Positions 7,647-49,337 of a DNA stretch of 64,000 bases are shown in pieces. The notes below the pieces were generated by a model. That model did not search any database, was not told the origin of the DNA, and saw nothing but the letters and a program-made list of their open reading frames with translations. How positions within the stretch are numbered: the stretch's first letter is position 1; every line of letters starts with the position of its first letter. This stretch comes from Chloroflexota bacterium (GTDB taxonomy: Bacteria; Chloroflexota; UBA11872; UBA12225; JAJDUF01): assembly GCA_965214295.1 (NCBI GenBank), contig OZ243944.1, positions 1,653,395 to 1,717,394 on the forward strand, written 5' to 3'. The position numbers and the translations under genes are program-made.

Positions 7647-7907
7647 GGTGTTTTTCCTTCATCAACGTTTTGAGTTGTCGAAACCGCGGCCGGCACCGCG
7701 CTGCACACTCGCGTCTGCCGGTCCAGAAAGGGTGTGCGGGGGAGGCTATCAAGCGATCTTGCTGCGATTCTACCGTAACGGAGGTGCTGTGGCGGCGTCC
7801 CTGCCAGCAAAGGGTACAATGGCTGCCCGCATAGAACCGTCGGTTCAAGCGTGCTCGATTGGCGGCCAGGCGCGAGGCCAGTGCATCGCTGGCAAGGAAG
7901 GATGCTC

Positions 7908-8855
7908 ATGATGGACTATCGTCGGCTCGGACGCACCGGCCTCACCGTCTCCGCGATTGGCTGCGGCACTTGGGAGCTGGGTGGGCGCGAATGGGGCGAG
8001 ATCGGCACCGAGGACGCGCTGGCCGTCCTGCGCCATGCCTACGATCACGGCGTCACTTTCTTCGATACCGCCGATCAGTACGGCGGTGGTCGCAGCGAGC
8101 GGCTGCTCGGCAAGGCGTTCGGCGGGCAATCCGAGGTCGTGATTGCGACTAAGGTTGGCTACCCGCCGGAGTCGGACGGCTGGTTGGTTCGGCGTGGCTC
8201 CCCACCGCAGCTCAATAGCAGCCGCGCTTATATCACCGCTGCCGTCGAAGGCTCGCTGCGGCGGCTGCGCCGGGAGGCGATTGACCTCTATCAACTGCAC
8301 CAAGCGCCGCCGCCGGAGCAGTGGGGCGAGGCGTTTGCCACGTTGGAGGCCCTGAAGCACGCCGGTAAAATCCGGCATTACGGCGTATCGGTGAATGTCG
8401 AAACCGGCTTGCGCGTGCTACGGGAAACCGACGCGGAGTGTCTGATGCTCGTCTATAACCTGCTCACACCGGAGCCGGAGGCCGAGCTACTGCCGCTGGC
8501 AGAGCTAAACGGCGTGGGTGTCGTTGCCCGTACACCGCTGGCCTCCGGCTTCCTCACCGGTGAGGTCACCGCTGCTACGCAGTTCGGTCCGGGCGACTAT
8601 CGCGGCCTCTGGCCCCGCGAGCGGCGCGAGCACGAGGCGGCGCACGCAGCCGCTTTCTCCTTCCTCGCTACGGACGCTCGCACGCCGTCCCAGGCGGCGC
8701 TGCGCTTTTGCCTGGCGCATCCGGCCGTCTCCACCGTCGTACCGGGGATGATGAGTGTGGACCAGGCGGCTGATGGCATTGCGGCGCTGGCGGCCCCGCC
8801 GCTTTCGGCGGCGGAGCTAGGCCGGGTCCGCGCCATCTGGTCTACCTGGGAGTGA
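7908..8855 (+). CDS. aldo/keto reductase
   Basis: MMDYRRLGRTGLTVSAIGCGTWELGG, IDLYQLHQ; RBS AAGGAAGG upstream. Confidence 0.8.
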   Translation: MMDYRRLGRTGLTVSAIGCGTWELGGREWGEIGTEDALAVLRHAYDHGVTFFDTADQYGGGRSERLLGKAFGGQSEVVIATKVGYPPESDGWLVRRGSPPQLNSSRAYITAAVEGSLRRLRREAIDLYQLHQAPPPEQWGEAFATLEALKHAGKIRHYGVSVNVETGLRVLRETDAECLMLVYNLLTPEPEAELLPLAELNGVGVVARTPLASGFLTGEVTAATQFGPGDYRGLWPRERREHEAAHAAAFSFLATDARTPSQAALRFCLAHPAVSTVVPGMMSVDQAADGIAALAAPPLSAAELGRVRAIWSTWE

Positions 8856-34980: not shown

Positions 34981-35167
34981 GGGTGCTGCACCTCCTGGGC
35001 TACTCGACGTGGCTGCTTCCGTTATGCTGGGATACTATCTGATGGGTTCGACCGTCCCCGGCTCTCTCCTATGGAGGGAAGGGGGGTCTTGAAGGCGACC
35101 GGCAGCCCTTTCCCTTCACGGAGGGGGTAAAGGGAGGCGTGTGCGCCGGGCACCAAGGAGCTTGCAA

Positions 35168-36304
35168 GTGAAGATCACCGCTGTCAAGACGTTCCTCGTG
35201 GATGCGTCGCCGCCGGGTGGCTGGAGTGGTGGTGGGCGCAACTGGCTGTTCGTCAAGGTCGAGACCGACGCCGGCATCTACGGACTTGGCGAGGCGAGCG
35301 GCTGGCCGCGCGTTGTCCGGACGGCTATCCAGGACCTCACCCCCGTCGTGGTCGGCGAGGACCCGGGCCGGATCGAGTATCTCTGGCAGAAGATGCTGCT
35401 GGCCATGATGGGGCACGGGATGACCGGCGTCGTGGGCGGCGGGGCGATGACCGGCATCGAGATTGCTCTCTGGGACATCCTGGGCAAGAAGCTCGGCGTA
35501 CCGGTATGTGACTTGCTGGGCGGTCGCCTGCGGGACCGCGTCCGCGTCTATGCCCACGCCAGCACCCCGGAGCGCGCACAGGAGCTAATCGAGCGCGGCT
35601 ATACCTGCTTCAAGTGCGGCAGCTTGCAGCACCCGGTCAGGACTGTCAAGACTCTGCGGGAGGCCGTCGGCGACGATATTGACTTGTGCATTGACGTGCA
35701 TGGGCCGCCCTGGTTTAGTGTGCCCGATGCCATCCGGGTTGGGCAGGCGCTCGAAGAGTACGGGCTGCTGTTCTACGAAGACCCCGTGCCGCCCGAAAAT
35801 ATCGAGTCGCTGGCAAAGGTGGCACGAGCCATAGACGTGCCCCTTGCCTGCGGCGAGCGGTCCAGCACCATCTACGGCTTTCGCGAGCTGATCGAGCGCG
35901 ACATCGTGGACGTGATCCAGCCCGATACCGGCCGCGCCGGGGGCCTGTTGCAGATGAAGAAGGTCGCCGCTCAGGCCGAGGCACACCACATCATGGTCGC
36001 TCCCCACGACGGGTCGCTCGGACCGATTGCCGAGGCGGCAGCGGTGCAGCTGATGGCCACGCTGCCCAACTTTCTCATCTTGGAGCACATGGCCGACGAC
36101 GTACCCTGGCGGTACGAGCTAATCGAAGAGTTTCCGCTGCACGACAGCCACTTCAGCGTGCCCGACCGCCCCGGCCTCGGCATCGAGCTAAACGAAGCGG
36201 TCGCCCGCGCCCATCCCGGCGGGTCGAACGTCAACCGACCGGGGCCGGCAGTACGCACCTACGTCGAATCACGCCTGAGCCGCCGCCGGCTGACGCAGCC
36301 GTAG
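35168..36304 (+). CDS. enolase-superfamily (MR/MLE) sugar-acid dehydratase
   Basis: GTG start (MKITAVKTFLV) with RBS AAGGAG; IALWDILGK; DxH/E/D metal ligands. Confidence 0.8.
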   Translation: MKITAVKTFLVDASPPGGWSGGGRNWLFVKVETDAGIYGLGEASGWPRVVRTAIQDLTPVVVGEDPGRIEYLWQKMLLAMMGHGMTGVVGGGAMTGIEIALWDILGKKLGVPVCDLLGGRLRDRVRVYAHASTPERAQELIERGYTCFKCGSLQHPVRTVKTLREAVGDDIDLCIDVHGPPWFSVPDAIRVGQALEEYGLLFYEDPVPPENIESLAKVARAIDVPLACGERSSTIYGFRELIERDIVDVIQPDTGRAGGLLQMKKVAAQAEAHHIMVAPHDGSLGPIAEAAAVQLMATLPNFLILEHMADDVPWRYELIEEFPLHDSHFSVPDRPGLGIELNEAVARAHPGGSNVNRPGPAVRTYVESRLSRRRLTQP

Positions 36305-36406
36305 CCCCTTGGTAGCCGGAGACGACACAGGCTATCATCTGGGGTATTGGGAAGAGGTTCGCCTATCTGGACGCACTCCGCCTCGCGCGGTGGAGAGGCA
36401 AGCGAG

Positions 36407-37588
36407 ATGACTGAGGCATTTGTCACGCCGGAAATCATCACGTGGGCACGGGGCCGCTTCAAGTGGGACCACGAGATGCTCGCAAAACGAGTGGGCGTCA
36501 ACGTGCGTACCGTCATTGCCTGGGAAACTGGCAAGAAGCGCCCCACTCAGCGGCAAGCGACCAAGCTCGCCGCCAAACTTCACGTTCCCTTGGGGTATCT
36601 GTGGCTCAACGCGCCACCAGCACTTGAGGTACCGATACCTGATCTTCGCACTGTTAGCGGTGTCGGGCCCCAGCCACCCAGCGCAAACTTTATAGATGTT
36701 CTGTACGATGCACGTAGAAAACAGCAATGGTATCGAGAATACTTGCAGAGCGAGGGGGCACGACCACTCCCATTTGTGGGCAGATTTCCTCTGAAATATG
36801 ATCCTAGATTCGGTGATGTTGCTGATGACATGAGAGCTACTATAGGCGTTGATAATGCACGACAGAAATCCAAGAAACACCTTCAATTTCTCGGTTTTCT
36901 TGCGGAAAATGCAGATAAAATAGGGATACTTGTATTGCGGAGTGACAAGGTGGGGAATAACACACGCCGAAAAATAAATGTTGATGAATTTCGTGGCTTT
37001 GCGTTCGTTGATGACTTAGCACCACTGGTTTTCATCAACAGTGCCGATACTCCTGCTGCCAGGATATTCACACTGGCGCATGAGCTTGCTCACGTGTGGA
37101 TCGGAGAAAGCGGAATATCTAACCCAACCGCAATCGGCATGGTTTTGCAGAAGGATAATCGCATCAATCGCTTCTGTAATCAGGTTGCGGCCGAGCTTCT
37201 TATACCAGCTGCGAGTTTTGTGGAAAAATGGCAACAAGGTGGAAATGTCGAAGAAAACATAACGGCGATGAGCGAATTCTATCACGTGAGCCGCACTGCG
37301 GTCCTGATTCGAGCCTATGAGCATGAGCTTCTGCCTGATGAAATCTATCGTCTTAAGCTTGAGCGACTGCAGCAATGGGAAATTCAGGAGCCTCAAGGTG
37401 GTGGCGGGAGTTTCTGGAACAACTTCCTTGCCAGCAATAGCCACACCTTGGTTCACGCGGTGCTTACCTCTGCCGCGGAGGGCCGCATTTCCGAGCGTGA
37501 TGCGGCAACCTTGCTAAGTCTCACCAATCGTAAGACGCTGAGATCGGCACAAGAGAAATTCATTCGTAGGCAGGTAGTCGGTGCCTGA
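36407..37588 (+). CDS. XRE-type HTH fused to ImmA/IrrE-family (DUF955) zinc metallopeptidase
   Basis: HTH (LAKRVGVNVRTVIAWETGKK), HEXXH (AHELAHVW); RBS GGAGAGG; ~50% GC. Confidence 0.75.
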   Translation: MTEAFVTPEIITWARGRFKWDHEMLAKRVGVNVRTVIAWETGKKRPTQRQATKLAAKLHVPLGYLWLNAPPALEVPIPDLRTVSGVGPQPPSANFIDVLYDARRKQQWYREYLQSEGARPLPFVGRFPLKYDPRFGDVADDMRATIGVDNARQKSKKHLQFLGFLAENADKIGILVLRSDKVGNNTRRKINVDEFRGFAFVDDLAPLVFINSADTPAARIFTLAHELAHVWIGESGISNPTAIGMVLQKDNRINRFCNQVAAELLIPAASFVEKWQQGGNVEENITAMSEFYHVSRTAVLIRAYEHELLPDEIYRLKLERLQQWEIQEPQGGGGSFWNNFLASNSHTLVHAVLTSAAEGRISERDAATLLSLTNRKTLRSAQEKFIRRQVVGA

Positions 37589-38063
37589 CTACTGGCTTGA
37601 CTCGGATACTTTGATTCGGCCGTATCGGGAGCTTACCTTTGATTGGCTGCCGAGCCTCTGGACGATCCTGCGGGAGAAGGGTGTGGAGGGAATCATTGCG
37701 AGTAGTTTGTATGTCTATGAAGAACTCAAGGATGGTGATGACGCTCTAGCGAAATGGGCTGAGGAGTGCCGGGACTTTGGGTTGTGGGTGCCGGCCGACG
37801 AGAGTGTCCAGCATGCCTACTCCACAATTGCAAACTATGTAGTGCAGCATCGGACTTATTCTCCGGAGCATGTGGCTATGTTCCTGGGCAAGGCTGATGC
37901 ATGGATCATCGCGCATGCTCTGGCCGGTGGTGGCAGAGTGGTCACGTTCGAGGTGTCTCAGCCGCTATCAGCGAGGCCCAAAATCCCGGATGTCGCTGGC
38001 AATTTCGGGGTGGACTGCTTAACGCTACATGAAATGCTCAGGGAAATGGAGGTAAGAATCTAA
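37581..38063 (+). CDS. DUF4411 PIN-like domain protein (putative nuclease/toxin partner of ImmA/IrrE-HTH gene)
   Basis: GTG start overlapping upstream stop by 8 bp (GTGCCTGA); family assignment from memory of conserved ImmA-DUF4411 pairing. Confidence 0.6.
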   Translation: MPDYWLDSDTLIRPYRELTFDWLPSLWTILREKGVEGIIASSLYVYEELKDGDDALAKWAEECRDFGLWVPADESVQHAYSTIANYVVQHRTYSPEHVAMFLGKADAWIIAHALAGGGRVVTFEVSQPLSARPKIPDVAGNFGVDCLTLHEMLREMEVRI

Positions 38064-38118
38064 GGTGCTTCCGTGTTGCGGCGTATCCATGCGCCGTCTT
38101 CCTCGGCCGCTGGCACGG

Positions 38119-39261
38119 TTAGCTTACGAGCCGCTGTCGCACCAGGTCCATGTCCAGCTCTATTCCGAGGCCCGGTCCGGTCGGGGGAATGATGTAGCCG
38201 TTCTCGAAGACGAGCGGCTCCTTGAATATCGTCCGGTGAATTGGGCCTTGGTTCGCTTCCTGGATCAAGAAGTTCGGCGAGCACGTATCGAGCTGAATGG
38301 CCGCCGCGGCGGCAATCGGACCACAGGCCATATGCGGCGCGATCATCGCGTAATGGGCTTCTGCGATGCTGGCGATCTTCTTCGACTCCAGGATGCCACC
38401 GCACTGCCCCACGTCGAGCTGGATGATCTGAGCCGCCTGCTTCTCGATCAGCTCGGCAAACTCGTATTTCGTCACGAGACGCTCACCGCTGGCGATGGGA
38501 ATGCTGGTGTGGGCGGCAACCCTCGCCATCTCGTCCACGTTCTCCGGGGGTACCGGCTCTTCGAACCAGAAGGGTTGGTACTTCTCCAGAGCTTGAGCCG
38601 CACGGATGGCGCTATAGGTAGTAAGCTGTCCATGGGTGCCGATGCCGACCTCCAGCCGGTCGCCGACGGCATTGCGGATGCTCTCGAAGATGCGCTCGGC
38701 GTAGGTGATCTCCGCCAACGAGATGTCGCGTGGCAGGGGATACAAGGGCCTGAACGGGTCGAGCTTGCAGGCGGAATTGCCCTGCTCCAGTAGCTCTATG
38801 GCGATTTCTCCGGCCCGCGCCGGGTTTTCGTCAAAGCCGTCCCTTGGCATATAGGCGTAGGCGCGTAGCCTGTCATGATATTGGCCGCCGAGCAGGTTGT
38901 AGATCGGTTGGTTGACCGCTTTGCCGATGATGTCCCAGCACGCCATTTCAATCGCACTCAGCGCCGGCGTGGTGTGCAGACTTGGATGGCGAAAGTCGTG
39001 CCTGGAGCCATACGCGCGCTGCCAGATTTTCTCTATCTGGAAGGGGTTTTCGCCGATCACGAACTGACGACCGATCTCTTCGATAAGACTGATATGGGCT
39101 TTCAGCCCAGCGAGGTGGTCGGAAAAGACATTGCCGGTCACGCGCTCGCCGAGGCCGACGACCCCCTCGTCGGTGACGACTTCGAGGAAGAGCAGGTACT
39201 TGCCGCCGCGATGGGGCGGGATGTTTTCGACCACCATGGTCTTGATGTCAACGATCTTCAC
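38119..39261 (-). CDS. enolase-superfamily (MR/MLE) sugar-acid dehydratase
   Basis: GTG start MKIVDIKTMVV with RBS GGAGGAGGG; MACWDIIGK; metal ligand motifs. Confidence 0.8.
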   Translation of the reverse strand: MKIVDIKTMVVENIPPHRGGKYLLFLEVVTDEGVVGLGERVTGNVFSDHLAGLKAHISLIEEIGRQFVIGENPFQIEKIWQRAYGSRHDFRHPSLHTTPALSAIEMACWDIIGKAVNQPIYNLLGGQYHDRLRAYAYMPRDGFDENPARAGEIAIELLEQGNSACKLDPFRPLYPLPRDISLAEITYAERIFESIRNAVGDRLEVGIGTHGQLTTYSAIRAAQALEKYQPFWFEEPVPPENVDEMARVAAHTSIPIASGERLVTKYEFAELIEKQAAQIIQLDVGQCGGILESKKIASIAEAHYAMIAPHMACGPIAAAAAIQLDTCSPNFLIQEANQGPIHRTIFKEPLVFENGYIIPPTGPGLGIELDMDLVRQRLVS

Positions 39262-39408
39262 CTCGCCCTCCTCCAACCCCGGCCCGTCATTCCCTCGTTC
39301 GCGGGAATCTACCGTGCAGCCGCGTGCCCCGGTTGCCCTGGATTCCCGCTTGCGCGAGAGTGACGGATGAGGGGCCGGGAACGACGGGGCTGCTTGTAGT
39401 CATCCATG

Positions 39409-40500
39409 CTAGCCGGTGAGCTTCGGCTCCCGCCACCTGGCCCCCTGCTGCCAGGTATCCCGGTCGGCACGGTGCATCCGCAGGTTACTCTCCCGGAGGG
39501 GCAGCGCAATCCGCTTGCCGCCCTGGAGGTGGGACTCCAGGATCGCCACCATGATCTCGACGCCGTGGCGCGCCGACTCCACGCCACCGCGCGGCGGACC
39601 GCCGGTGTCCAATGCCCCGACCAAGTCCATGATCGTGTTGATCGTGGTGCTTTGGCGGGGGAACGTGGGGAACTCCACCGGCCGGTGGCTGCGCGCGCTG
39701 CCCTTCCGCATGACCCAGTCCAGGGTATCGTTGAAGGTGCCCACCATGCCGTGCTCACAGTTGGCCTGGTATTCGTAGCGGTTGGTGCAGAGCAGGTACA
39801 GGGTGACGCCGTTCTCGAAGCGGATCACGCCGTCGCCGCCGGGGTCGTCGCGGTAGACGTGGCCGTCACGGAGCGGCTCCGACTGGGGCGCGTTGCCCTG
39901 TACCCACACGGCGCGGGCATCGCCGTTGAGATACAGCGCCAGGTCCATGGTATGGCAGCCGTGGTCGAAGAGACCGCCTCCGTAGGTCATCACCAGGCTT
40001 TGGAGGGCACCTAGCTCACCCTGCTCGATGATCTCCCGCATCTTCCCAAAGCCCGGATGGTAGCGGCGCTGGGTGCCCATGTCGAACGCGGTGCCGTGGC
40101 GCTCGCACGCCGCGGCCATGGCGTTGGCCGTCGCCAAGGATGGCGCCATACCCTTCTCGCAGTAGATGGCCTTGACGCCCTGCTCCGCAGCATGGATCAC
40201 GATGTCGGCGTGGTGCTCGACGTGGGTAGCGACGCTCACGATGTCGAGGTCTTCCCTGGCGACCATCTCCTGGTAGTCGGTGTATTGCCGATCCTTGGGT
40301 ACCGCGTACTGCTCTCCGAATACCGCCATCAAGTCTTCGCGGAAGTCGGAGCAGGCTACCAAGTCGGTCCGGTCGCAGGCGTAGAAGCCGGCGCCGTGAG
40401 CATAGGGCGGCACGTGCCCGGGGGCACCGACGACCTCGTTGTCAATGAAGCCACCCATACGCCCGCAGCCGATCACCGCAGCTCTGTAGATTTTCACCGT
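39409..40500 (-). CDS. Gfo/Idh/MocA family oxidoreductase
   Basis: GTG start (VKIYRAAVIGCGRMG) with RBS GAGGAG; EKG motif. Confidence 0.8.
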   Translation of the reverse strand, partial: TVKIYRAAVIGCGRMGGFIDNEVVGAPGHVPPYAHGAGFYACDRTDLVACSDFREDLMAVFGEQYAVPKDRQYTDYQEMVAREDLDIVSVATHVEHHADIVIHAAEQGVKAIYCEKGMAPSLATANAMAAACERHGTAFDMGTQRRYHPGFGKMREIIEQGELGALQSLVMTYGGGLFDHGCHTMDLALYLNGDARAVWVQGNAPQSEPLRDGHVYRDDPGGDGVIRFENGVTLYLLCTNRYEYQANCEHGMVGTFNDTLDWVMRKGSARSHRPVEFPTFPRQSTTINTIMDLVGALDTGGPPRGGVESARHGVEIMVAILESHLQGGKRIALPLRESNLRMHRADRDTWQQGARWREPKLTG

Positions 40501-40666
40501 TCTCCTCGCTCCCGACCGGTCGTGATGCATAGTATGGTCGCCGCCGGCGCGGCCGCGCGCTCGCCTCCGACCGGCCCTTATCGTACCGCGCGCCGCCGAT
40601 AGCCTCCGACCACGTCGCCTGCAAGTGGTAGAATGCCCACCGGACCACCGACGGAGGATAGACGGC

Positions 40667-41494
40667 ATGCCAGGACTGACGGCGGCGCAGTTGCAGCAGT
40701 ATGGGGAGGACGGTTTCCTGACGGTGGAAGGGGTCCTGACCCCGGAGGAGGTCGAGACGCTGCGTCAAGCGTGCAGTGAGGTAGAGGAGCTGGCACAGGG
40801 CCTCACGGCTCGGACTCCGGCCATCCAGCCGCGTATCCTCCCCTCCGGCCGCCGCGTGGTGGACATTGTCAAAGGAGCCGTGTTTCAGCATCCGCAGTTC
40901 CTCGCAGCCTGCACGCACCCCGGCGTACTCGACATCATCGAATCGCTGGTCGGCCCGGATATTCAGCATCACCACAGTAAGCTGAACTGGAAGCCCCCGC
41001 TGCCCCCGGAGCAGGCTGCCCAGGGGTGGAAGATCGGGTGGCACCAGGATTACGCCTTCTTCCCGCACACCAACTATGATCTGCCGGCGTGCGCCATCTA
41101 TCTCGATGACACCAACCTGGAGAATGGCTGTATGCAGGTCATTCCCGGCAGCCATCGCGGCGGACCGCGCAATCATATGCAGGACGGCGCCTTCAGCGGC
41201 GTGTGTCAGGAGCCGGAAGCCTACGCGGACGAGTCGCGGTGGCGGACGGTGGAGGTTCCGGCCGGCGGCATCTCGCTCCACCATTGCCTGATGCTCCACA
41301 GCTCCGGCCCCAACCACTCGGAGCGCGCCAGACGAACATTCGTTATTCAGTATCGGGCGGCCGACAACGTGCAGGTCGCCGGCCGCACCAGTCATCTGGG
41401 CTGGGGCTTTCAGGTCCGCGGACAGAACCATGCGCTGATCCGCTTCGAGAACGGAGTCACCTGCCCGCTCCCGGAGGGGCTGACGTCGCACTAG
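40667..41494 (+). CDS. phytanoyl-CoA dioxygenase (PhyH) family Fe(II)/2-oxoglutarate oxygenase
   Basis: WHQDYAFF (HxD) ... HHCLMLHSSGPN ... RR; RBS GGAGG. Confidence 0.75.
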   Translation: MPGLTAAQLQQYGEDGFLTVEGVLTPEEVETLRQACSEVEELAQGLTARTPAIQPRILPSGRRVVDIVKGAVFQHPQFLAACTHPGVLDIIESLVGPDIQHHHSKLNWKPPLPPEQAAQGWKIGWHQDYAFFPHTNYDLPACAIYLDDTNLENGCMQVIPGSHRGGPRNHMQDGAFSGVCQEPEAYADESRWRTVEVPAGGISLHHCLMLHSSGPNHSERARRTFVIQYRAADNVQVAGRTSHLGWGFQVRGQNHALIRFENGVTCPLPEGLTSH

Positions 41495-41504
41495 GAGCGA
41501 CCCC

Positions 41505-42305
41505 ATGAACACTGCGGAGCAGCAAGCGCACTTCCGCACCTTCGGCTTCGTGGTCCAGCGTCAGGCGTTCACGCCCGACGAGATGCGGGCAATTACGCAC
41601 GAGTTCGACGCTCTGATGACCGAGCTGCGCGAGGGCCAGCCCTTTATGGGGGAGAGCAGTGAAAATCGCGCTCCGTTCGTCGAGCTACGCCCGGCACTGT
41701 CCCGGCTGGCGGTGGACGACCGCATCCATGGCACCGTCGAGAAGTTGCTCGGCCCGGACTTCCTCTGGGCCAGCTCCGAGGGCAACATCACCGTCGGCGA
41801 CCATCTCTGGCATCCCGATAGGCCGGGCGACGAGGAAGAGATTTCGTACCTCCGCCTCAAGACGATGATTTACCTGGACGAAACGACCCGAGATGCCGGT
41901 GCCATCCGCCTGATCCCCGGCTCGCATCGTCTGCCGCTGCACGAGGAGATCGAGCGTGAGCAGCGCCACCAGCACGGGCCAACGTTGGCGCCGTTCGGTG
42001 TGCCCGGCGCCGAGGTGCCCTGCTTCGCCTACGAGTCCCGACCCGGCGACGTGCTCTTCTTCAACCAAAGCCTCTGGCATGGGGTCTTCCACGGGTGGGT
42101 CGGGCGCCGCTATATCGCGCTGAAGTACGCCGCCATGCCGCAAACGGACAAGCAGATTGGCTCGCTCGACTACTATTCCCGCGGCACTATCTTCCAGCCG
42201 GTCGATTCGTTCGCGCAGAGCGACAATCCCCGCATTCGGCGCATGGTGGACCCGCTACCGGCGCTAGGACGCAAGCAGGTCCCGCCCTTTGTCCCCTTCC
42301 GCTGA
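41505..42305 (+). CDS. PhyH-family Fe(II)/2OG oxygenase
   Basis: LWHPD (HxD), IPGSHR, LWHGVF. Confidence 0.75.
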   Translation: MNTAEQQAHFRTFGFVVQRQAFTPDEMRAITHEFDALMTELREGQPFMGESSENRAPFVELRPALSRLAVDDRIHGTVEKLLGPDFLWASSEGNITVGDHLWHPDRPGDEEEISYLRLKTMIYLDETTRDAGAIRLIPGSHRLPLHEEIEREQRHQHGPTLAPFGVPGAEVPCFAYESRPGDVLFFNQSLWHGVFHGWVGRRYIALKYAAMPQTDKQIGSLDYYSRGTIFQPVDSFAQSDNPRIRRMVDPLPALGRKQVPPFVPFR

Positions 42306-43943
42306 ACAGGCGAGATGGGTCTCTATCCATTCCGTAACGGTGTCTCGCCAGGCGACCGGGGCAAAAAGCCTCAAGCTAAGGTACGACCGTCGCTCATCCA
42401 TTCCCAGTGCCGCCACTGCTGCATTGTGACCGATAACCAGGGGTACTAGGGTCGTATACCGAACGTAATGTACAGACATGTTTGGAAACTCTATGGCCGA
42501 CGTCAGCTGCTCCAAGAAGGGCCGAGAAAATAGATTCCGGTTCTCTTTCCTGGACACCACAAAATAGCTTGCGAGTGGATTCATTGCTAGTTGTAGACAC
42601 TCCCAAGAAACATCCCCTGTTGCTCTAGTTAGGCAATATGTGAAAGCCGGTCCGCTGGTATCCCCAAGTCCGATCTCAATCGCGTCAGGCCGTTTGGCAT
42701 TCACCACTTCCCAGTTTCTATGACCGTCTATTCTTCGCTGTCCCCGCCGCGACCTCGACTGCCAGTATGTTCCGAAGATGTAGCAAGCCCCAAAAACCTC
42801 TTCTAGCAGTGACCACCCCACACGACGCATCTGGTACAACAGCCGGTCAAACCGATACTCTCGCTCATCGTCCTTCATGAGTCCCAAAAGCCTGATCTCG
42901 AAGCCACTGATCTGATCCAACACCTGAGTTGGCACTTGCGCCCGATCCGCCTCTTCCGGGAACCAACTGAGTTCAGCAATGTCCCGGGGAGTCAGAACCG
43001 GGTAGGCTACAGCCCGTATCGGTAGGTCGGGGGCATGCCGCCAGAATACTTGCTTGTCATGCTGCGCTCGCCAGAGATGGCGGCTCTGTGTACTCCCCCC
43101 ATCCAGTTCATGGCGAACGGGCTTGGGGATCATGCCCCGGCCATCCCAAGTAGCGATATGCCACGTTGTACTCGCCACCGGGAGCACGGGACCATCTGGG
43201 TCGGGGCCAATGAGATGCTGTTCAATCCAGGCCGCGATCACAGGACGCAGTTCAGCCGGCATAAGAATCTGCAGACCACCGCTACTAGCTGAGACGAGTG
43301 CCATGCCATGGCGCACCACCAGAGCAAGCAGGGCCGGGTAGTTGACCTTGACTTTCCTGCGGCGTGTCTCCACATGCAGAGTATTAATGACCTTGGAGAG
43401 AAATGCTTGAGAGATGATTTGGGTATCCGGCGTGGTAGTTGAGATGAAAGGGGACATAATGGCATAGTGATCTTCAACAGAGTCCAGGTATCCTCCGATA
43501 TTCACTCTCCGCAAACCAACTAGAAAGCTGTAGCGTGGCTCCGTATCAACCTCACGCTCTACGACCCCCTTCTCTCTGAGCTTGCTTTCCTCCCAAAATA
43601 GTCCTTTATATGATCGGATTCTATTCTTCATTTCGATATTACTTATACGGAGAAGATGATTTGATTGAAACACATCACTGAGAATACTCTGTGTAATCAT
43701 CCTCTGCAGTTTGGAAACACGATCAAGGAGATGACGATAACGATCATCCCGGCCCTCGAAGTCAATAGCAATACCGCTAACCGGTGGGGGTGTCCCAGTC
43801 GGCAATTGTGCTGTATTGGCACTTTCCGGATGCCAATGCAGGTCGGGTATGTCCCCTAGCCCTACTTCTGGATACTCCGTCACATGGAACGTGATATCGT
43901 ACATAGCTCCCGGCGTCCCTTCCGTGGTGAGAACAGTAAGCAA
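42264..43943 (-). CDS. hypothetical protein (559 aa), no recognisable domain; low-GC islet
   Basis: long ORF with protein-like composition, ~50% GC; start may be M14 (MYDITFHV); overlaps 3' end of PhyH gene convergently. Confidence 0.5.
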   Translation of the reverse strand: MLTVLTTEGTPGAMYDITFHVTEYPEVGLGDIPDLHWHPESANTAQLPTGTPPPVSGIAIDFEGRDDRYRHLLDRVSKLQRMITQSILSDVFQSNHLLRISNIEMKNRIRSYKGLFWEESKLREKGVVEREVDTEPRYSFLVGLRRVNIGGYLDSVEDHYAIMSPFISTTTPDTQIISQAFLSKVINTLHVETRRRKVKVNYPALLALVVRHGMALVSASSGGLQILMPAELRPVIAAWIEQHLIGPDPDGPVLPVASTTWHIATWDGRGMIPKPVRHELDGGSTQSRHLWRAQHDKQVFWRHAPDLPIRAVAYPVLTPRDIAELSWFPEEADRAQVPTQVLDQISGFEIRLLGLMKDDEREYRFDRLLYQMRRVGWSLLEEVFGACYIFGTYWQSRSRRGQRRIDGHRNWEVVNAKRPDAIEIGLGDTSGPAFTYCLTRATGDVSWECLQLAMNPLASYFVVSRKENRNLFSRPFLEQLTSAIEFPNMSVHYVRYTTLVPLVIGHNAAVAALGMDERRSYLSLRLFAPVAWRDTVTEWIETHLACSAEGDKGRDLLAS

Positions 43944-44160
43944 GGACCAGGTCGGAGGCTATACTTAGCGTCAGCCCTCAACATAGCGGCGGCACAGCAT
44001 CGGTCCGGCGGAATCGGCAGCGATGGCATCCGTCCGTCCCATGTTATGTGGCCCACCTGATGGGTATCATACAGTACCCGGACATCCCTGCCGCCCGCAC
44101 TGCTACTTCACGAGGGCTTGCGGCGCCCACAACGGTAATCAGAAGTCAGGAGGCCACACG

Positions 44161-45351
44161 ATGAGCAGCCGGAGCGAGCCGCCAGCGACCGCCGGAGCCG
44201 CCGCCAGCGGGCAGCGGGTTGATCTCGGCATCACGCGGCTGACGCAATCGGACGCCGGACACGCCAACGGCGCCGCCATCGTGCGCGCGCAAAACGGGTC
44301 GCGCCCCGAACGCATCGCCACCGATTTCTCCGCGGCCCGGTCGCGCTATCGCGTGAGCGTGGAGGAGTACGTGCGGTTCCTCGTGGACGGGTTCTTGATC
44401 GTGCGCGGCCTGGTCGGTCCGGAGGAGGTGCAGGAGTTACTCACTCACACCGAGGACCTCCTGTATGGCCGCGTCGAGGCGCCGGGCTTGGCGCCACCCC
44501 CGCCAGGCGCCAGCGTAGCCGAGATCGAGCGCCGGTACCTCCGCATCCATATGCTGCACCAACATCTGGAAATACACGAGCGCTTTCTGCTCCATCCGCG
44601 TATTCTCGACGTGCTCGAAGCGCTCATCGGCCCGGACGTGATGGCGATGCAGACGATGCTCTTTTTCAAGCCGCCCGGTGGCGCCGGCCAAGGCTATCAT
44701 CAGGACAGCTACTACATCCCCACCTACCCCGATACGCTCTGCGGCGCGTGGCTGGCGTTGGAGCGGGCGGATGAGGAAAACGGCTGCGTGTGGTTCACGG
44801 GCGGCACGCAGCACGAGCCGATCTATCCCAGTGCGGACCGGCTCACCCAGAATCACGCCAACCTGGCGCTGACACCCGTGGAGCACGTGTCGCATACGGA
44901 CACGGCAGTCAACACGTTGAGCCGGATTGCTGCGCGGTATCCTGGGCGGGAAGTGCCGGCCGTCGCCGAGCCGGGTGACGTGGTGTTCTTTGCCGGGCAC
45001 ATTCTCCACCGCTCGCACACCAATCGGTCCCCGGATCGTTTTCGCCGGGCGTTCGTTAGCCACTACGCCAACGCCCGCTCGTTCACGATGTGGGGTGGCC
45101 CGAGCCGGCAGCGGCAGACGAATGATCGGCATATTCTGGCCCGCGGGTGGACGCACTTGCCGTTCGGCCTCCCCCGGTTCGAGACACCCTGCGCGGCCAA
45201 CGGGCCGCCGCCCGCTGCCGCCCAACGGGGTGACGAGCCAATGCCCAGCGCCCTCATGGCGGACGGCGCTGAGATGCAATCGGCGGCACAAAACCCGCAG
45301 CGGAACGACCCGGCGCTGATGCGGCAGCACGATACTGCCGGCGGGCGCTAG
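44161..45351 (+). CDS. PhyH-family Fe(II)/2OG oxygenase with N- and C-terminal extensions
   Basis: YHQDSYY (HxD), FAGHILHRS; RBS AGGAGG 8 nt upstream. Confidence 0.7.
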   Translation: MSSRSEPPATAGAAASGQRVDLGITRLTQSDAGHANGAAIVRAQNGSRPERIATDFSAARSRYRVSVEEYVRFLVDGFLIVRGLVGPEEVQELLTHTEDLLYGRVEAPGLAPPPPGASVAEIERRYLRIHMLHQHLEIHERFLLHPRILDVLEALIGPDVMAMQTMLFFKPPGGAGQGYHQDSYYIPTYPDTLCGAWLALERADEENGCVWFTGGTQHEPIYPSADRLTQNHANLALTPVEHVSHTDTAVNTLSRIAARYPGREVPAVAEPGDVVFFAGHILHRSHTNRSPDRFRRAFVSHYANARSFTMWGGPSRQRQTNDRHILARGWTHLPFGLPRFETPCAANGPPPAAAQRGDEPMPSALMADGAEMQSAAQNPQRNDPALMRQHDTAGGR

Positions 45352-45384
45352 AGACACACGGGCGTCACAGACGGGACCGCTGCG

Positions 45385-46785
45385 ATGTTATTGACGATTA
45401 CCACAACCTACCAACCTGCCACCGACCTGGGCTTTCTTCTGGCCAAGAATCCGGCCCGGTGTCAATCGTTCTCCTTGTCCTTCGGTCAGGCCCATGTCTT
45501 TTATCCGGTAGCGCACGACCGGGTCTGCACGGCGGCACTGCTCGTTGACCTCGATCCGATCCGTCTCGTGCGGCGGCGACGAAGCCGTCAGAGCCAGGAC
45601 CGCACGCTCGGCCAGTACGTGAACGACCGGCCGTATGTGGCCTCATCTTTTCTGAGCGTGGCGTTGGCCCGCGTGTACAAGTCGGCATTGGGCGGCCAGA
45701 GTAAAGAGCGACCGGCACTTGCGGCTACGGCTATTCCGCTCGCGGTGCAGATCACTGCGGTCCAATGTCGCGATGGTGAGCGCATGCTGCGGGCGCTCTT
45801 CGAGCCGCTCGGCTACAACGTCAGCGCCGAGCGCCAGCCGCTCGATGTAGCCTTTCCGCAGTGGGGAGAGAGCACGTATTGGTCACTCGCTCTCGATGCC
45901 ACCCACCGCCTGCATGACCTCCTCACACACCTGTATGTCTTGCTGCCGGTACTGGACGACGACAAGCATTACTGGGTTGGGAGGGACGAGCTGGAGAAGC
46001 TGCTGGCAAAAGGAGCGGGCTGGCTCTCGACTCACCCGGAACGTGACTTGATCGTTGACCGCTACTTGCGGTACCGGCGCCTGCTCACCCGCGAGGCCCT
46101 CGCCAGACTGGTGGTCGACGACGACATCAATCCCGATGCTACCGAGGAAGCACAGGCCCGCGAAGAGGCGGTGTTGGAGGACAGAATCAGCCTCAGTGAG
46201 CAGCGCATGATGGCCGTGCTGGCTGTGCTCAGGGGAGCCGGCGCTACACGGGTGATCGACCTGGGCTGTGGGGAGGGGAAGTTTCTCCAGGTGCTACTCA
46301 AGAATACGGACTATGAGCAAATCACCGGTATGGATGTGTCCTCCCGGGCCCTAGCGTTAGCAGCGAGACGTTTGCGGCTCGACCGGTTACCGGCGAGACA
46401 ACGCGCGCGCATCGAGCTTTTTCAGGGAGCGCTCACCTACCGGGATCAACGACTCACCGGTTACGATGCCGCCTGTGCGCTGGAGGTTATCGAGCACATC
46501 GAACCATCGCGGCTGGGCGCTTTCGAGCGGGTGCTCTTCGAGTTTACACGGCCGTCAACCGTAGTGATTACCACGCCGAACACAGAGTACAACGTGCGAT
46601 TCGAGGACCTTGCCGCCGGTCGGTTCCGCCACCGCGATCATCGCTTCGAGTGGACCCGCGCGGAGTTCTCACGCTGGGCGCAGCGGGTGGCAGATCGCTC
46701 CGGCTATGCGTTTCGGTTGCTGCCTATCGGTCCAGTTGACCCGGCCGTAGGTCCTCCGACCCAGATGGCGGTATTCTCACGATGA
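45385..46785 (+). CDS. hen1: bacterial Hen1 RNA 3'-terminal 2'-O-methyltransferase
   Basis: N-terminal Pnkp-interacting region and C-terminal SAM MTase (VIDLGCGEGKFL); overlaps pnkp start by 4 bp (ATGA). Confidence 0.8.
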   Translation: MLLTITTTYQPATDLGFLLAKNPARCQSFSLSFGQAHVFYPVAHDRVCTAALLVDLDPIRLVRRRRSRQSQDRTLGQYVNDRPYVASSFLSVALARVYKSALGGQSKERPALAATAIPLAVQITAVQCRDGERMLRALFEPLGYNVSAERQPLDVAFPQWGESTYWSLALDATHRLHDLLTHLYVLLPVLDDDKHYWVGRDELEKLLAKGAGWLSTHPERDLIVDRYLRYRRLLTREALARLVVDDDINPDATEEAQAREEAVLEDRISLSEQRMMAVLAVLRGAGATRVIDLGCGEGKFLQVLLKNTDYEQITGMDVSSRALALAARRLRLDRLPARQRARIELFQGALTYRDQRLTGYDAACALEVIEHIEPSRLGAFERVLFEFTRPSTVVITTPNTEYNVRFEDLAAGRFRHRDHRFEWTRAEFSRWAQRVADRSGYAFRLLPIGPVDPAVGPPTQMAVFSR

Positions 46786-49337
46786 ATATCACTGTCCCGG
46801 CACTGTCGTTGGTGGTCTTGATCGGCCCTTCGGGCAGCGGCAAGTCTACGTTTGCCAGCAAGCATTTCAAGCCCACGGAAGTGCTGTCATCCGACTATTG
46901 CCGCGGCCTCGTGTCCGATGACGAAAACGATCAAGCTGCGACGAAAGATGCCTTCGACGTACTCCACTTCATCGCTCGCAAACGCCTCGCGGCTGGCCGG
47001 CTCACCGTGGTAGATGCTACCAACGTTCAGGCGGAGGCACGCAAGCCGCTGGTGGCGCTGGCACGAGAAGCCCACGTGCTTCCTGTGGCCCTCGTCTTCA
47101 ACCTGCCGGCCAAGCTGTGCCAGGAGCGCAACCGCGACCGGCCCAACCGCGACTTCGGTCCCCACGTGGTTCGGCAGCACAGTCAGCAGCTGAGACGCTC
47201 GCTCCGCGGCCTGCGGCGGGAGGGTTTTCGACACACCGCTATCCTGAGCACGCCGGATATGGTCGCCGCCGCCCGTATCGTGCGGCAGCCTTTGTGGGTC
47301 GACCGGCGGCAGGAGCATGGTCCGTTCGACATCATTGGCGATGTCCACGGCTGCTTCGATGAGCTTGTCGCGTTGCTGGAGCAGCTGGGCTATGACATCG
47401 GCGGCCCGACTGGTCGGCCCACGGTGCGCCACCCGGACGGTAGGCGTGCGGTGTTTGTTGGCGATCTCGTGGATCGAGGCCCTAACTCGCCTGGGGTGCT
47501 CCGGTTGGTCATGGCCATGGTGGCCGACGCGGCAGCGCTGTGTGTGCCGGGCAATCACGACATCAAGCTCATGCGAAAACTCAAGGGGCGCGATGTTCGG
47601 ATCACGCATGGTCTCGCGGAAACGCTGACGCAGCTGGCCGCAGAGCCGGATGACTTCCGACGGAGCGTGATGGAGTTTCTCGACGGGCTGGTGAGCCATT
47701 ACGTGCTCGACGATGGGCGGTTGGTCGTTGCTCATGCTGGCCTGAAGGAGGAGCTGCAAGGGCGCGCCTCGGGCCAGGTACGGGAGTTTGCGCTCTATGG
47801 CGAAACCACTGGCGAGACCGATGAGTTCGGATTGCCGGTTCGTCACAACTGGGCTGACGACTACCGAGGATCGGCCACTGTCGTCTACGGACACACACCG
47901 GTACCAGCCGCAGAGTGGCGCAACCGGACTGTCTGTATTGACACCGGTTGCGTGTTTGGTGGGAAGCTGACGGCTTTACGCTATCCGGAAAAGGAGCTGG
48001 TGCATGTCCAGGCGCGCCGCACCTACTATGACCCGGTGCGTCCTCTACTACCACCAAGCCAAGAGGCGCCGGCTGTATCGCGCCGTCCCCACGATGACAT
48101 ACTGGATATCAACGATGTCTTGGGTAAGCGTGTCATTACCACACGCATTCACCGCAACATCACTATTCGCGAGGAGAATGCTTTGGCGGCTCTCGAGGTC
48201 ATGAGCCGATTTGCGGTGGATCCGCGGTGGCTTATCTATCTACCACCGACTATGGCTCCTCCGGATACCTGCAAAGATGGCGAGTACCTTGAGCATCCAC
48301 GCGACGCCTTCGCTTACTTCCGAGGGCAGGGAGTGGCTCAGGTTATCTGCGAGGAAAAGCACATGGGCTCACGGGCTATCGTCGTTCTCTGCCGCGATCA
48401 GGAGGCGGCCCAGCGCCGATTCCAGGCGGACAATGGCCGGCTCGGTCTCGTCTATACGCGCACGGGACGCCCCTTCTTTTCCGATACCAAGATGGAGGGC
48501 ACGCTGCTCGCGCGTATGTCTGCCGCCTTGGCGCAGGTGGACTTCTGGGATCGCTTTGAGACGGACTGGCTCTGCCTCGATGCCGAGCTGCTGCCGTGGT
48601 CGGCGAAGGCTCAGGGGTTGCTACAGGATCAGTACGCAGCTACGGCGGCCGCAGCCAGCACTACGCTCGATGCCGCCGTCTCCTTGCTGAAGAAGGCCGC
48701 GGGCCGCGAAGAAGAGCGCGCGGCGTTGCTCACTCGCTACCGGAAGCGCCAGGAAATGGCGAGCCGGTTTCGCGCGGCCTATCGTCGCTACTGCTGGCCG
48801 GTCAGGAGTGTGGCCGACCTGAAGCTGGCGCCCTTTCACCTGCTGGCGACGGAAGGGCGGACATACACGGACAAGGACCACACCTGGCACATGGAGATGG
48901 TCGCGGCCCTCTGCCAGGCTGATGGAGCGATCTTCGCTGCTACTCCCTACAAAACTGTCGACCTGACCGACCCTGACAGCGAGACAAGAGGGATCAGCTG
49001 GTGGAAAGAGCTGACTGCCGCTGGCGGCGAGGGGATCGTTGTGAAGCCGCTCCGGTGGATCGTGAGAGGGAGTCGAGGCCTCGTTCAGCCGGCCATGAAG
49101 TGCCGGGGACGCGAGTACTTGCGATTGATCTATGGCCCGGAGTATACGGCTCCTGAGCACCTGGAGCGGCTCCGGTCCCGCAAGGTCTCCGTGAAGCGCT
49201 CGTTAGCCCTGCGAGAGTTTGCGCTGGGTGTCGAGGCGCTCCATCGGTTTACGGAGGAAGAGCCGCTGTATCGGGTGCATGAATGCATCTTCGGCGTGCT
49301 GGCCCTGGAGAGCGAGCCGGTCGACCCTAGGCTCTAG
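46782..49337 (+). CDS. pnkp: polynucleotide kinase-phosphatase (kinase / metallophosphoesterase / ligase-like domains)
   Basis: P-loop GPSGSGKST; calcineurin-type GDVHGC..GDLVDRGP..GNHD; C-terminal adenylyltransferase-like EEKHMGSR. Confidence 0.85.
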   Translation: MNITVPALSLVVLIGPSGSGKSTFASKHFKPTEVLSSDYCRGLVSDDENDQAATKDAFDVLHFIARKRLAAGRLTVVDATNVQAEARKPLVALAREAHVLPVALVFNLPAKLCQERNRDRPNRDFGPHVVRQHSQQLRRSLRGLRREGFRHTAILSTPDMVAAARIVRQPLWVDRRQEHGPFDIIGDVHGCFDELVALLEQLGYDIGGPTGRPTVRHPDGRRAVFVGDLVDRGPNSPGVLRLVMAMVADAAALCVPGNHDIKLMRKLKGRDVRITHGLAETLTQLAAEPDDFRRSVMEFLDGLVSHYVLDDGRLVVAHAGLKEELQGRASGQVREFALYGETTGETDEFGLPVRHNWADDYRGSATVVYGHTPVPAAEWRNRTVCIDTGCVFGGKLTALRYPEKELVHVQARRTYYDPVRPLLPPSQEAPAVSRRPHDDILDINDVLGKRVITTRIHRNITIREENALAALEVMSRFAVDPRWLIYLPPTMAPPDTCKDGEYLEHPRDAFAYFRGQGVAQVICEEKHMGSRAIVVLCRDQEAAQRRFQADNGRLGLVYTRTGRPFFSDTKMEGTLLARMSAALAQVDFWDRFETDWLCLDAELLPWSAKAQGLLQDQYAATAAAASTTLDAAVSLLKKAAGREEERAALLTRYRKRQEMASRFRAAYRRYCWPVRSVADLKLAPFHLLATEGRTYTDKDHTWHMEMVAALCQADGAIFAATPYKTVDLTDPDSETRGISWWKELTAAGGEGIVVKPLRWIVRGSRGLVQPAMKCRGREYLRLIYGPEYTAPEHLERLRSRKVSVKRSLALREFALGVEALHRFTEEEPLYRVHECIFGVLALESEPVDPRL

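Follow-up and report, generated by a model that had tools for sequence, protein, structure and literature searches.

What is the function of a protein that resembles nothing in the catalogues and is encoded, alone, among metabolic and RNA-repair genes? This question is raised by a minus-strand gene of a Chloroflexota bacterium (contig OZ243944.1 of assembly GCA_965214295.1), located at positions 42264–43904 of the 64,000-nucleotide stretch of DNA analyzed here (the window), where it separates genes for PhyH dioxygenases close to the RNA-repair genes Hen1 and Pnkp. A first-pass annotation had considered it either a conflict-system protein, such as an effector or a ribotoxin-related product, or a novel enzyme. 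The reading favored here, with a probability of about 0.68, is that of a cytoplasmic, toxin-less orphan immunity protein formed by two fused and diverged domains of an immunity family for EHHH toxins. The homology of the family and the toxin-then-immunity order of its genes, found in many unrelated bacteria, are the grounds for this reading.

The minus-strand open reading frame (ORF) at 42264–43943 is present, and it encodes 559 amino acids when read from a TTG codon, as it had been annotated. However, the N-terminus shared by all homologs (MYDITFHV) is encoded from the ATG at 43904, a ribosome-binding site (GGGAG) is found 5' of this codon, and a database protein of 546 amino acids (P0001) is 100% identical to the window protein. 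Therefore, this ATG is the true start and the coding sequence extends over 42264–43904 (546 amino acids; stop codon at 42264–42266), so that the gene of the first-pass annotation is real and its length is not. The absence of familiar motifs reported there has held, since no significant match for the window protein was obtained in Pfam, NCBIfam, or PADLOC; a resemblance to the C-terminal domain of H-NS (E = 0.034, 14 bits against a cut-off of 25.6 bits) was taken as noise. The protein shows cytoplasmic features (maximum Kyte-Doolittle value over 19 residues of 1.43; N-terminus not hydrophobic), with neither signal peptide nor transmembrane segment in its hydropathy profile, and no secretion or trafficking domain was found in it.

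A tandem internal duplication had been overlooked. In a BLASTP self-comparison, residues 3–231 align with residues 293–531 (23% identity, E = 3e-15), revealing a repeat unit that is a domain of ~235 amino acids, with a linker of ~50 amino acids between the two copies, and the hidden Markov model (HMM) of the domain scores 229 and 244 bits on the two halves of the protein. The N-terminal domain comprises residues 1–240 (43185–43904, minus strand, as are all segments of the protein given below) and retains the full family signature, as judged by the alignments and the AlphaFold2 (AF2) model; the linker, outside the repeat because the self-alignment does not cover it, comprises residues 241–290 (43035–43184); and the C-terminal domain, a divergent second copy according to the self-alignment, the family alignment, and the domain HMM, comprises residues 291–546 (42267–43034). 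A suspected relic of a toxin cassette in the linker, based on a "DGGS" resemblance, was discarded, as the toxin HMM scores the linker negatively and DGGS lacks conservation.

Close homologs are only five among 5.8e9 clustered proteins (73–77% identical, 512–548 amino acids). When 1.84e9 cluster representatives were searched exhaustively with HMMER and a profile built from the six tandem proteins (that of the window and these five), 17 proteins were returned at E <= 1e-3: one tandem cluster, to which the tandem form is restricted in this search, one fragment of 68 amino acids, and 15 single-domain relatives of 227–387 amino acids. Since each of these relatives aligns to one half of the window protein, the repeat unit is a rare stand-alone domain. 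New family members were also fetched from genomes and metagenomes by means of the peptide pattern K[SGN]R[VIL]RSYKG. Ten distant relatives gave no match to Pfam or NCBIfam models (Pfam at E up to 1), except for a sub-threshold match to RecU in protein P0008. The family is new to Pfam 2025, NCBIfam 2026, and PADLOC, and neither sequence nor Foldseek comparison revealed a PDB relative.

Family alignments define a signature formed by W24, the motif R95-x-R97-S98-Y99-K100-G101-[LVI]-F and, after it, G-x-[YFW]-x-E116-x-E118. E116 is invariant in the family, and R95, R97, S98, G101, and E118 are conserved at >=90%. In the window protein, the motif reads R95-I-R-S-Y-K-G-L-F103 (43596–43622), and the acidic pair E116-x-E118, a candidate plug for the toxin pocket, is encoded at 43551–43559, within a predicted beta-strand. 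None of the N-domain signature residues varies among the six tandem homologs. On the other hand, the motif of the C-domain is degenerate (S-R-S-R-R-G, with an insertion of 7 amino acids, and E-I-G in place of E-x-E); this copy retains R-S-x-x-G and E116, and shows the changes Y to R, K to R, and E118 to G. The signature residues are also changed in part in the distant relatives P0009 and P0010. The structural comparison suggested in the first-pass annotation has been carried out. A full-length AF2 model based on the six close homologs was of low confidence (pLDDT 30), whereas an alpha/beta model of the N-domain, whose input alignment mixed N-halves, C-halves, and distant relatives, was confident (pLDDT 83.2, pTM 0.84). 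In this predicted model, the RSYKG motif is placed in a short helix (residues 95–100) and the ExE pair on a strand (residues 114–122). Foldseek comparison of the model gave nothing significant against the PDB (best E = 0.027, TM <=0.2, no nuclease) or against BFVD, and sequence-profile searches of the PDB with the window family gave no match.

Pairing of the family with Tox-HNH-EHHH toxins

The distribution and neighborhood of the homologs, whose analysis had also been suggested, place single-domain relatives directly downstream of Tox-HNH-EHHH toxins. All paired loci were retrieved by the sequence of the immunity side only. The toxin domain was recognized as PF15657 (Tox-HNH-EHHH; Pfam cut-off of 25 bits), and a second toxin HMM, built from the C-termini of the recovered toxins, was applied to matches below this cut-off. 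In this way, 14 paired loci were obtained that represent about 11 lineages at <50% identity and belong to at least Bacteroidota, Acidobacteriota, and Ca. Kapaibacterium; several further paired loci are copies of these 14. The order is that of a toxin domain at the C-terminus of one protein followed, on the same strand and directly downstream, by the single-domain relative, with a gap of 0–4 bp or an overlap between them wherever gene calls exist.

For example, P0027 begins 4 bp after a toxin ORF of 131–133 amino acids (40.3 bits; loci L012/L014), P0011 begins 2 bp after a protein of >912 amino acids with RHS repeats, DUF4214, and the toxin domain (30.6 bits, residues 859–900; L015), and P0013 overlaps the stop codon of a protein of >273 amino acids with a C-terminal toxin domain (35.4 bits; L004). 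An Acidobacteriota homolog follows an RHS-repeat protein that also ends in the toxin domain (37.2 bits; L018). At lower scores (17–24.5 Pfam bits), homologs of Prolixibacteraceae (L017), Bacteroides (L020), and Marinilabiliaceae (L021) are located after RHS-repeat proteins with the toxin domain at their ends, all three of them clear matches with the toxin HMM built here. This HMM added unannotated toxin ORFs directly 5' of P0027 (L010/L011) and of P0016 in Ca. Kapaibacterium (L005/L006), and a toxin domain in the RHS/TEN_YD-shell protein that precedes P0014 (L023). Only a toxin remnant precedes P0018 (L024). In the metagenome pattern scan, the toxin domain is immediately upstream in all the loci assessed (L030, L032, L034, L036–L039, and L040); L035, whose contig starts within the homolog, was left out of this assessment.

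The toxin and partner distance matrices are correlated (Mantel r = 0.844, p = 1e-4, n = 14 loci), a correlation to which shared host phylogeny may contribute. The partners are mildly acidic and the toxins are basic, with a pI of 9.4–10 in most of them. Two copies of the family coexist in one array (L019), and P0016 is found within arrays of small ORFs that include an Imm-NTF2-2 gene. Because of the direct downstream position and the co-divergence of toxins and partners, the domain very probably defines a family, absent from the catalogues, of immunity proteins for Tox-HNH-EHHH DNase toxins. The possible conflict-system role raised in the first-pass annotation is thus maintained in the sense of inter-bacterial conflict biology, whereas an effector or ribotoxin-like role is not, as the family occupies the position downstream of the toxin; i.e., the immunity side.

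Other observations were made at these loci. The EHHH toxin upstream of P0016, intact in L005/L006, is frameshifted and split across two frames in L007 (153–430) and L008 (359–636), which shows toxin decay with retention of the immunity gene. In L010/L011, a complete Tox-HNH-EHHH ORF upstream of P0027 (~7695–7994) had been overlooked by the gene caller; these loci also hold two tyrosine recombinases, a primase gene (Toprim/DnaG zinc-ribbon), and toxin-antitoxin (TA) genes, and the toxin–immunity pair rides on a mobile element. The Marinilabiliaceae homologs (L019, 5135–5977 and 7710–8552; L021, 1345–2187) have 280 amino acids, and their C-terminal tail (...KCGAKLDQHHKF/Y) is similar to the extreme C-terminus of the EHHH toxin. 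In L019, small ORFs lie in the 1.7 kb that separate the two copies, an arrangement that looks like a recombination scar of cassette switching.

Inheritance, selection, and proposed function of the window gene

The toxin HMM, run on all six frames, found no match in the 64-kb window or in the relatives' loci L001, L002, and L016. As no toxin is nearby, the window gene and its counterparts in four syntenic Chloroflexota relatives are regarded as orphan immunity genes; judged by homology, the window gene is an orphan member of the family and not one half of a complete toxin–immunity pair. In the relatives (L001 and L002/L003, from metagenomes, and L016, on the Chloroflexota metagenome-assembled chromosome OZ241866.1), the gene occupies the same slot, with PhyH genes on either side, next to Hen1-Pnkp and housekeeping genes. 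The synonymous divergence (dS) of the gene (0.25–0.37) equals that of its neighbors, so that inheritance has been vertical since the common ancestor of these genomes. A metagenome scan with the PhyH neighbor found no relative with an empty site.

The low-GC islet previously described around the gene is confirmed (GC of 0.533 in the gene against 0.645–0.649 in the flanks, and of 0.47–0.59 in local windows across the gene against 0.64–0.68 on either side). The GC content at third codon positions (GC3) is 0.55 in the window gene versus 0.72–0.83 in neighboring genes, and it stays at 0.55–0.60, versus 0.72–0.85 for neighbors, when the copies from the genomes of all syntenic relatives are included. 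This foreign codon usage is consistent with a horizontal origin of the window gene. Therefore, the proposal of a horizontally acquired slot agrees with GC3, although a recent insertion does not agree with the presence of the gene at the same site in four relatives or with a dS like that of the neighbors.

Selection on the window gene and its relatives is purifying but relaxed. The nonsynonymous divergence (dN) is ~3 times that of the neighbors, with an amino-acid identity of 74–77% versus 89–96%, and the dN/dS ratio (omega) is 0.35–0.49 (upper bounds of the bootstrap 95% confidence intervals <=0.64) versus 0.07–0.22 for the neighbors. In all pairs, and for the domains taken one by one, omega is significantly <1; it is 0.22–0.48 in the C-domain, which is thus still constrained, and the linker has the highest value in three of the six pairwise comparisons and one near that of the N-domain in the rest. 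Despite a dS of 0.15–0.37, intact ORFs of 532–548 amino acids are present in five of the six homologs (the window protein and P0002–P0006), the other one, P0006 (512 amino acids), differing only at its C-terminal end. More than 300 residues are invariant in the alignment of the six. A neighbor-joining tree without support values groups the N-domains, the C-domains, and the toxin-less single-domain proteins P0009 and P0010 in a single clade, separate from those linked to toxins, which suggests that the duplication took place within an already orphan lineage. P0009 is encoded beside hydantoinase genes and TA modules, and P0010 at a contig end.

According to the favored reading, each domain would bind one incoming EHHH nuclease domain (1:1) and would block the basic active-site or DNA-binding pocket of the toxin; the E116/E118 pair, flanked by RxRSYKG, would probably contribute to this blocking, as proposed by analogy. 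The ancestor of the Chloroflexota lineage would have gained the gene horizontally and then duplicated it, and the lineage might keep it without a toxin as protection against the EHHH toxins of competitors. The canonical signature is intact in the N-domain; the C-domain, having drifted, may suit another toxin variant or serve as a scaffold. Several points weigh against this picture. Toxin binding and neutralization are predictions for every family member, and the present-day target of the window protein, which has no cognate toxin nearby, is a putative one; the role of E116/E118 as a plug is likewise proposed from analogy. The clade of the window protein (tandem proteins, P0009, and P0010) is wholly toxin-less in the available sequence, which leaves room for a changed function; omega is 3–4 times that of the neighbors and could mean partial relaxation; and half of the signature is lost in the C-domain. 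Finally, the toxin scan covered the 64-kb window and the relatives' loci, and an unlinked EHHH toxin could be encoded in the rest of the genome.

This changed function is the core of one alternative, in which the Chloroflexota clade would derive from an immunity protein exapted to do something else, for instance to inhibit or regulate an endogenous nuclease, or to work with PhyH-Hen1-Pnkp in a damage or counter-toxin response. Although the toxin-less state of the whole clade, the partly altered signature residues of P0009, P0010, and the C-domain, and the position by PhyH-Hen1-Pnkp, with a conserved 253-bp divergent region stable in the window and four relatives, are all in accordance with it, exaptation is considered unlikely. 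The synteny spans the entire region, including housekeeping genes, in these close genomes (neighbors 89–96% identical), and because it is region-wide the adjacency of Hen1-Pnkp says little about function. Moreover, this adjacency is confined to the Chloroflexota group of 73–77% identity; P0009 and P0010 are found in unrelated contexts without Hen1/Pnkp, and these genes are absent from all distant-homolog loci with Pfam-annotated gene calls (the pattern-scan loci, from genomes and metagenomes, were not checked for them). No evidence ties the window gene to RNA repair, and this part of the first-pass annotation has been abandoned. It also speaks against exaptation that the N-domain retains every signature residue of the family and that orphan immunity genes that persist for long are known from polymorphic toxin systems (PMC3482391). 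A related proposal, quite unlikely, is that the domesticated, duplicated immunity domain forms with PhyH-Hen1-Pnkp a chromosomal counter-toxin locus, or that it inhibits or regulates an endogenous nuclease; either way, it would be a new fold whose invariant RxRSYKG/ExE motif would plug an HNH active site. If the counter-toxin locus were true, one arm would neutralize HNH DNase toxins while the other would repair ribotoxin-damaged RNA.

The same toxin-less state, together with the raised omega, the degenerate motif of the C-domain, and a codon usage that has not been ameliorated, might be expected of a decaying remnant of a lost toxin–immunity cassette, drifting to a pseudogene without current function. 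This is very unlikely in view of the intact ORFs of five of the six homologs at the dS mentioned above, of an omega below 1 in every pair and each domain, and of the 300+ invariant residues, which include all signature positions of the N-domain. Hardly credible is the explanation first proposed for the protein, in which an effector of a conflict system, a toxin akin to ribotoxins, or some unrelated new enzyme would be functionally tied to the RNA-repair cassette. The islet-like composition beside Hen1-Pnkp would fit it, and a catalytic role of the strongly conserved polar motif RxRSYKG...ExE is conceivable; however, the family members are the downstream partner of the toxin and not the toxin itself, they lack secretion or trafficking domains, and neither the enzyme families of Pfam, NCBIfam, and PADLOC nor the PDB, by sequence or fold, offer any relative; the novel enzyme has found no support. 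The sub-threshold RecU match of P0008 (E = 0.024), which would point to a PD-(D/E)xK nuclease, was rejected: it reaches 15.1 bits against a cut-off of 25, it occurs in one of the ten proteins scanned, and no nuclease fold was found by Foldseek with the N-domain model.

Genes around the window gene

As had been annotated, the window gene splits a PhyH cluster and overlaps one of its members convergently. Two PhyH genes are located on one flank (40625–41494 and 41505–42305), and the third one, followed by Hen1 and Pnkp, on the other. The 3' ends of the window gene and of the PhyH gene at 41505–42305 overlap by 42 nt (42264–42305); this overlap also exists in L001 and is absent from L002/L003, where the protein has 532 amino acids. 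The third PhyH gene (plus strand) starts at 44158 and not at 44023, as corrected against the relatives: the ORF call of 442 amino acids is too long and the true start is M46. This gene, Hen1 (45385–46785, plus strand), and Pnkp (46782–49337, plus strand) are closely packed at 44158–49337, with a gap of 34 nt and then an overlap of 4 nt, and the string is kept in all syntenic relatives. Because of this conserved tight packing, the 2-oxoglutarate-Fe(II) oxygenase encoded by the third PhyH gene may partner the RNA-repair pair in an operon. FBPase_3 follows in the gene order beyond Pnkp.

The window gene and PhyH-Hen1-Pnkp share a divergent intergenic region of 253 bp (43905–44157) with blocks conserved in the relatives. 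A consensus promoter scan called nothing on the minus strand of this region, and the promoter/terminator scan was uninformative. One of the conserved blocks (44064–44076, minus strand; GTACTGTATGATACCCATCAGG in the window and TATTATAAGATACCCATCAGG in the relatives, with equivalents in L001/L002) holds a -10-like TATGAT/TATAAG, ~160 nt upstream of the ATG of the window gene, that was not flagged by the scan.

Farther away, a gene encoding an HTH_3+Peptidase_M78 protein (IrrE-like; 36347–37588, plus strand) overlaps a DUF4411 gene (37581–38063, plus strand), both constituting a second low-GC islet (36347–38063, GC of 0.46–0.55). Both the window and L001 contain the pair, whereas in L002 it is missing and two MR_MLE genes are next to each other; the pair resembles a mobile toxin-antitoxin or defense-type two-gene module. 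It is located between MR_MLE genes (35141–36304; 38119–39276, minus strand), the second of which is followed by GFO_IDH_MocA (39409–40668, minus strand). Four plus-strand ORFs in this part (162–242 amino acids, 38065–40602, no Pfam match) were discarded as shadow ORFs of the minus-strand MR_MLE and GFO_IDH_MocA genes, an assignment that agrees with the synteny of L001.

Comparison with known systems

With the reading favored above, an orphan protein and a rare family gain a concrete and testable function. The family would be the third or a further immunity family, structurally unmatched, for the widespread Tox-HNH-EHHH DNase toxins (RHS and other polymorphic toxins), and its signature, K[SGN]R[VIL]RSYKG...ExE, can be used for annotating family genes. 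A double antidote in a lineage without the toxin, as far as the 64-kb window and the relatives' loci are concerned, points to bystander defense, which would be directed against the toxins of co-resident bacteria such as Bacteroidota or Acidobacteriota.

Two immunity families, Imm8 and Imm50, have been listed as partners of Tox-EHHH (Zhang et al., 2012, PMC3482391). The new family shares with them the gene arrangement, in which the gene for a small cytoplasmic protein directly follows, on the 3' side, that of an RHS or other toxin with a C-terminal EHHH-type HNH nuclease, and the occurrence also as orphans and in arrays. In contrast, it has its own RxRSYKG...ExE signature, its window member is a fused tandem without a toxin, and no match to the Imm families of Pfam was obtained with the window protein (E up to 10) or ten relatives (E up to 1). 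A validated example is TsiI, the immunity protein of the Rhs effector TseI (Tox-HNH-EHHH) of the type VI secretion system of Aeromonas dhakensis; the start of the immunity gene overlaps the stop of the toxin gene, and TsiI binds the nuclease domain directly (PMC7170923). The toxin family and the gene order, with overlapping stop and start, are the same as in the loci described here, whereas TsiI (154 amino acids; sequence taken from the supplement of PMC7170923) is unrelated in sequence (-1.8 bits in an hmmsearch with the domain HMM).

Another example is that of the HNH-like DNase toxins neutralized by acidic "DNA-mimic" immunity proteins, namely RehhI/Imm22, SUKH, CdiI-like, and Imm24 for Tox-REHH, whose conserved acidic residues enter the basic catalytic pocket (preprint 10.64898/2026.09.22.753552). 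In both cases, a single toxin family has immunity proteins of several unrelated folds, and the near-invariant E-x-E of the new family, together with its basic partner toxins, recalls the acidic plug; however, the toxin is EHHH and not REHH, and an acidic plug in the new family would be assumed by analogy.

Immunity genes are also kept without their toxin, presumably against competitors, as in the acquired interbacterial defense of Bacteroidales, and multi-domain immunity proteins occur, e.g., tandem SUKH. Toxin-less retention and the duplication of a domain within one polypeptide are thus shared by the window gene. On the other hand, this gene is single, chromosomal, and vertically inherited, and it is wedged in a metabolic and RNA-repair neighborhood instead of belonging to an integrase-bearing island or an immunity array. 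Therefore, the kind of system is known (immunity to polymorphic toxins, with orphans and tandem forms), and what is new is the family, its pairing with EHHH toxins, and a fused orphan that is vertically kept in Chloroflexota.

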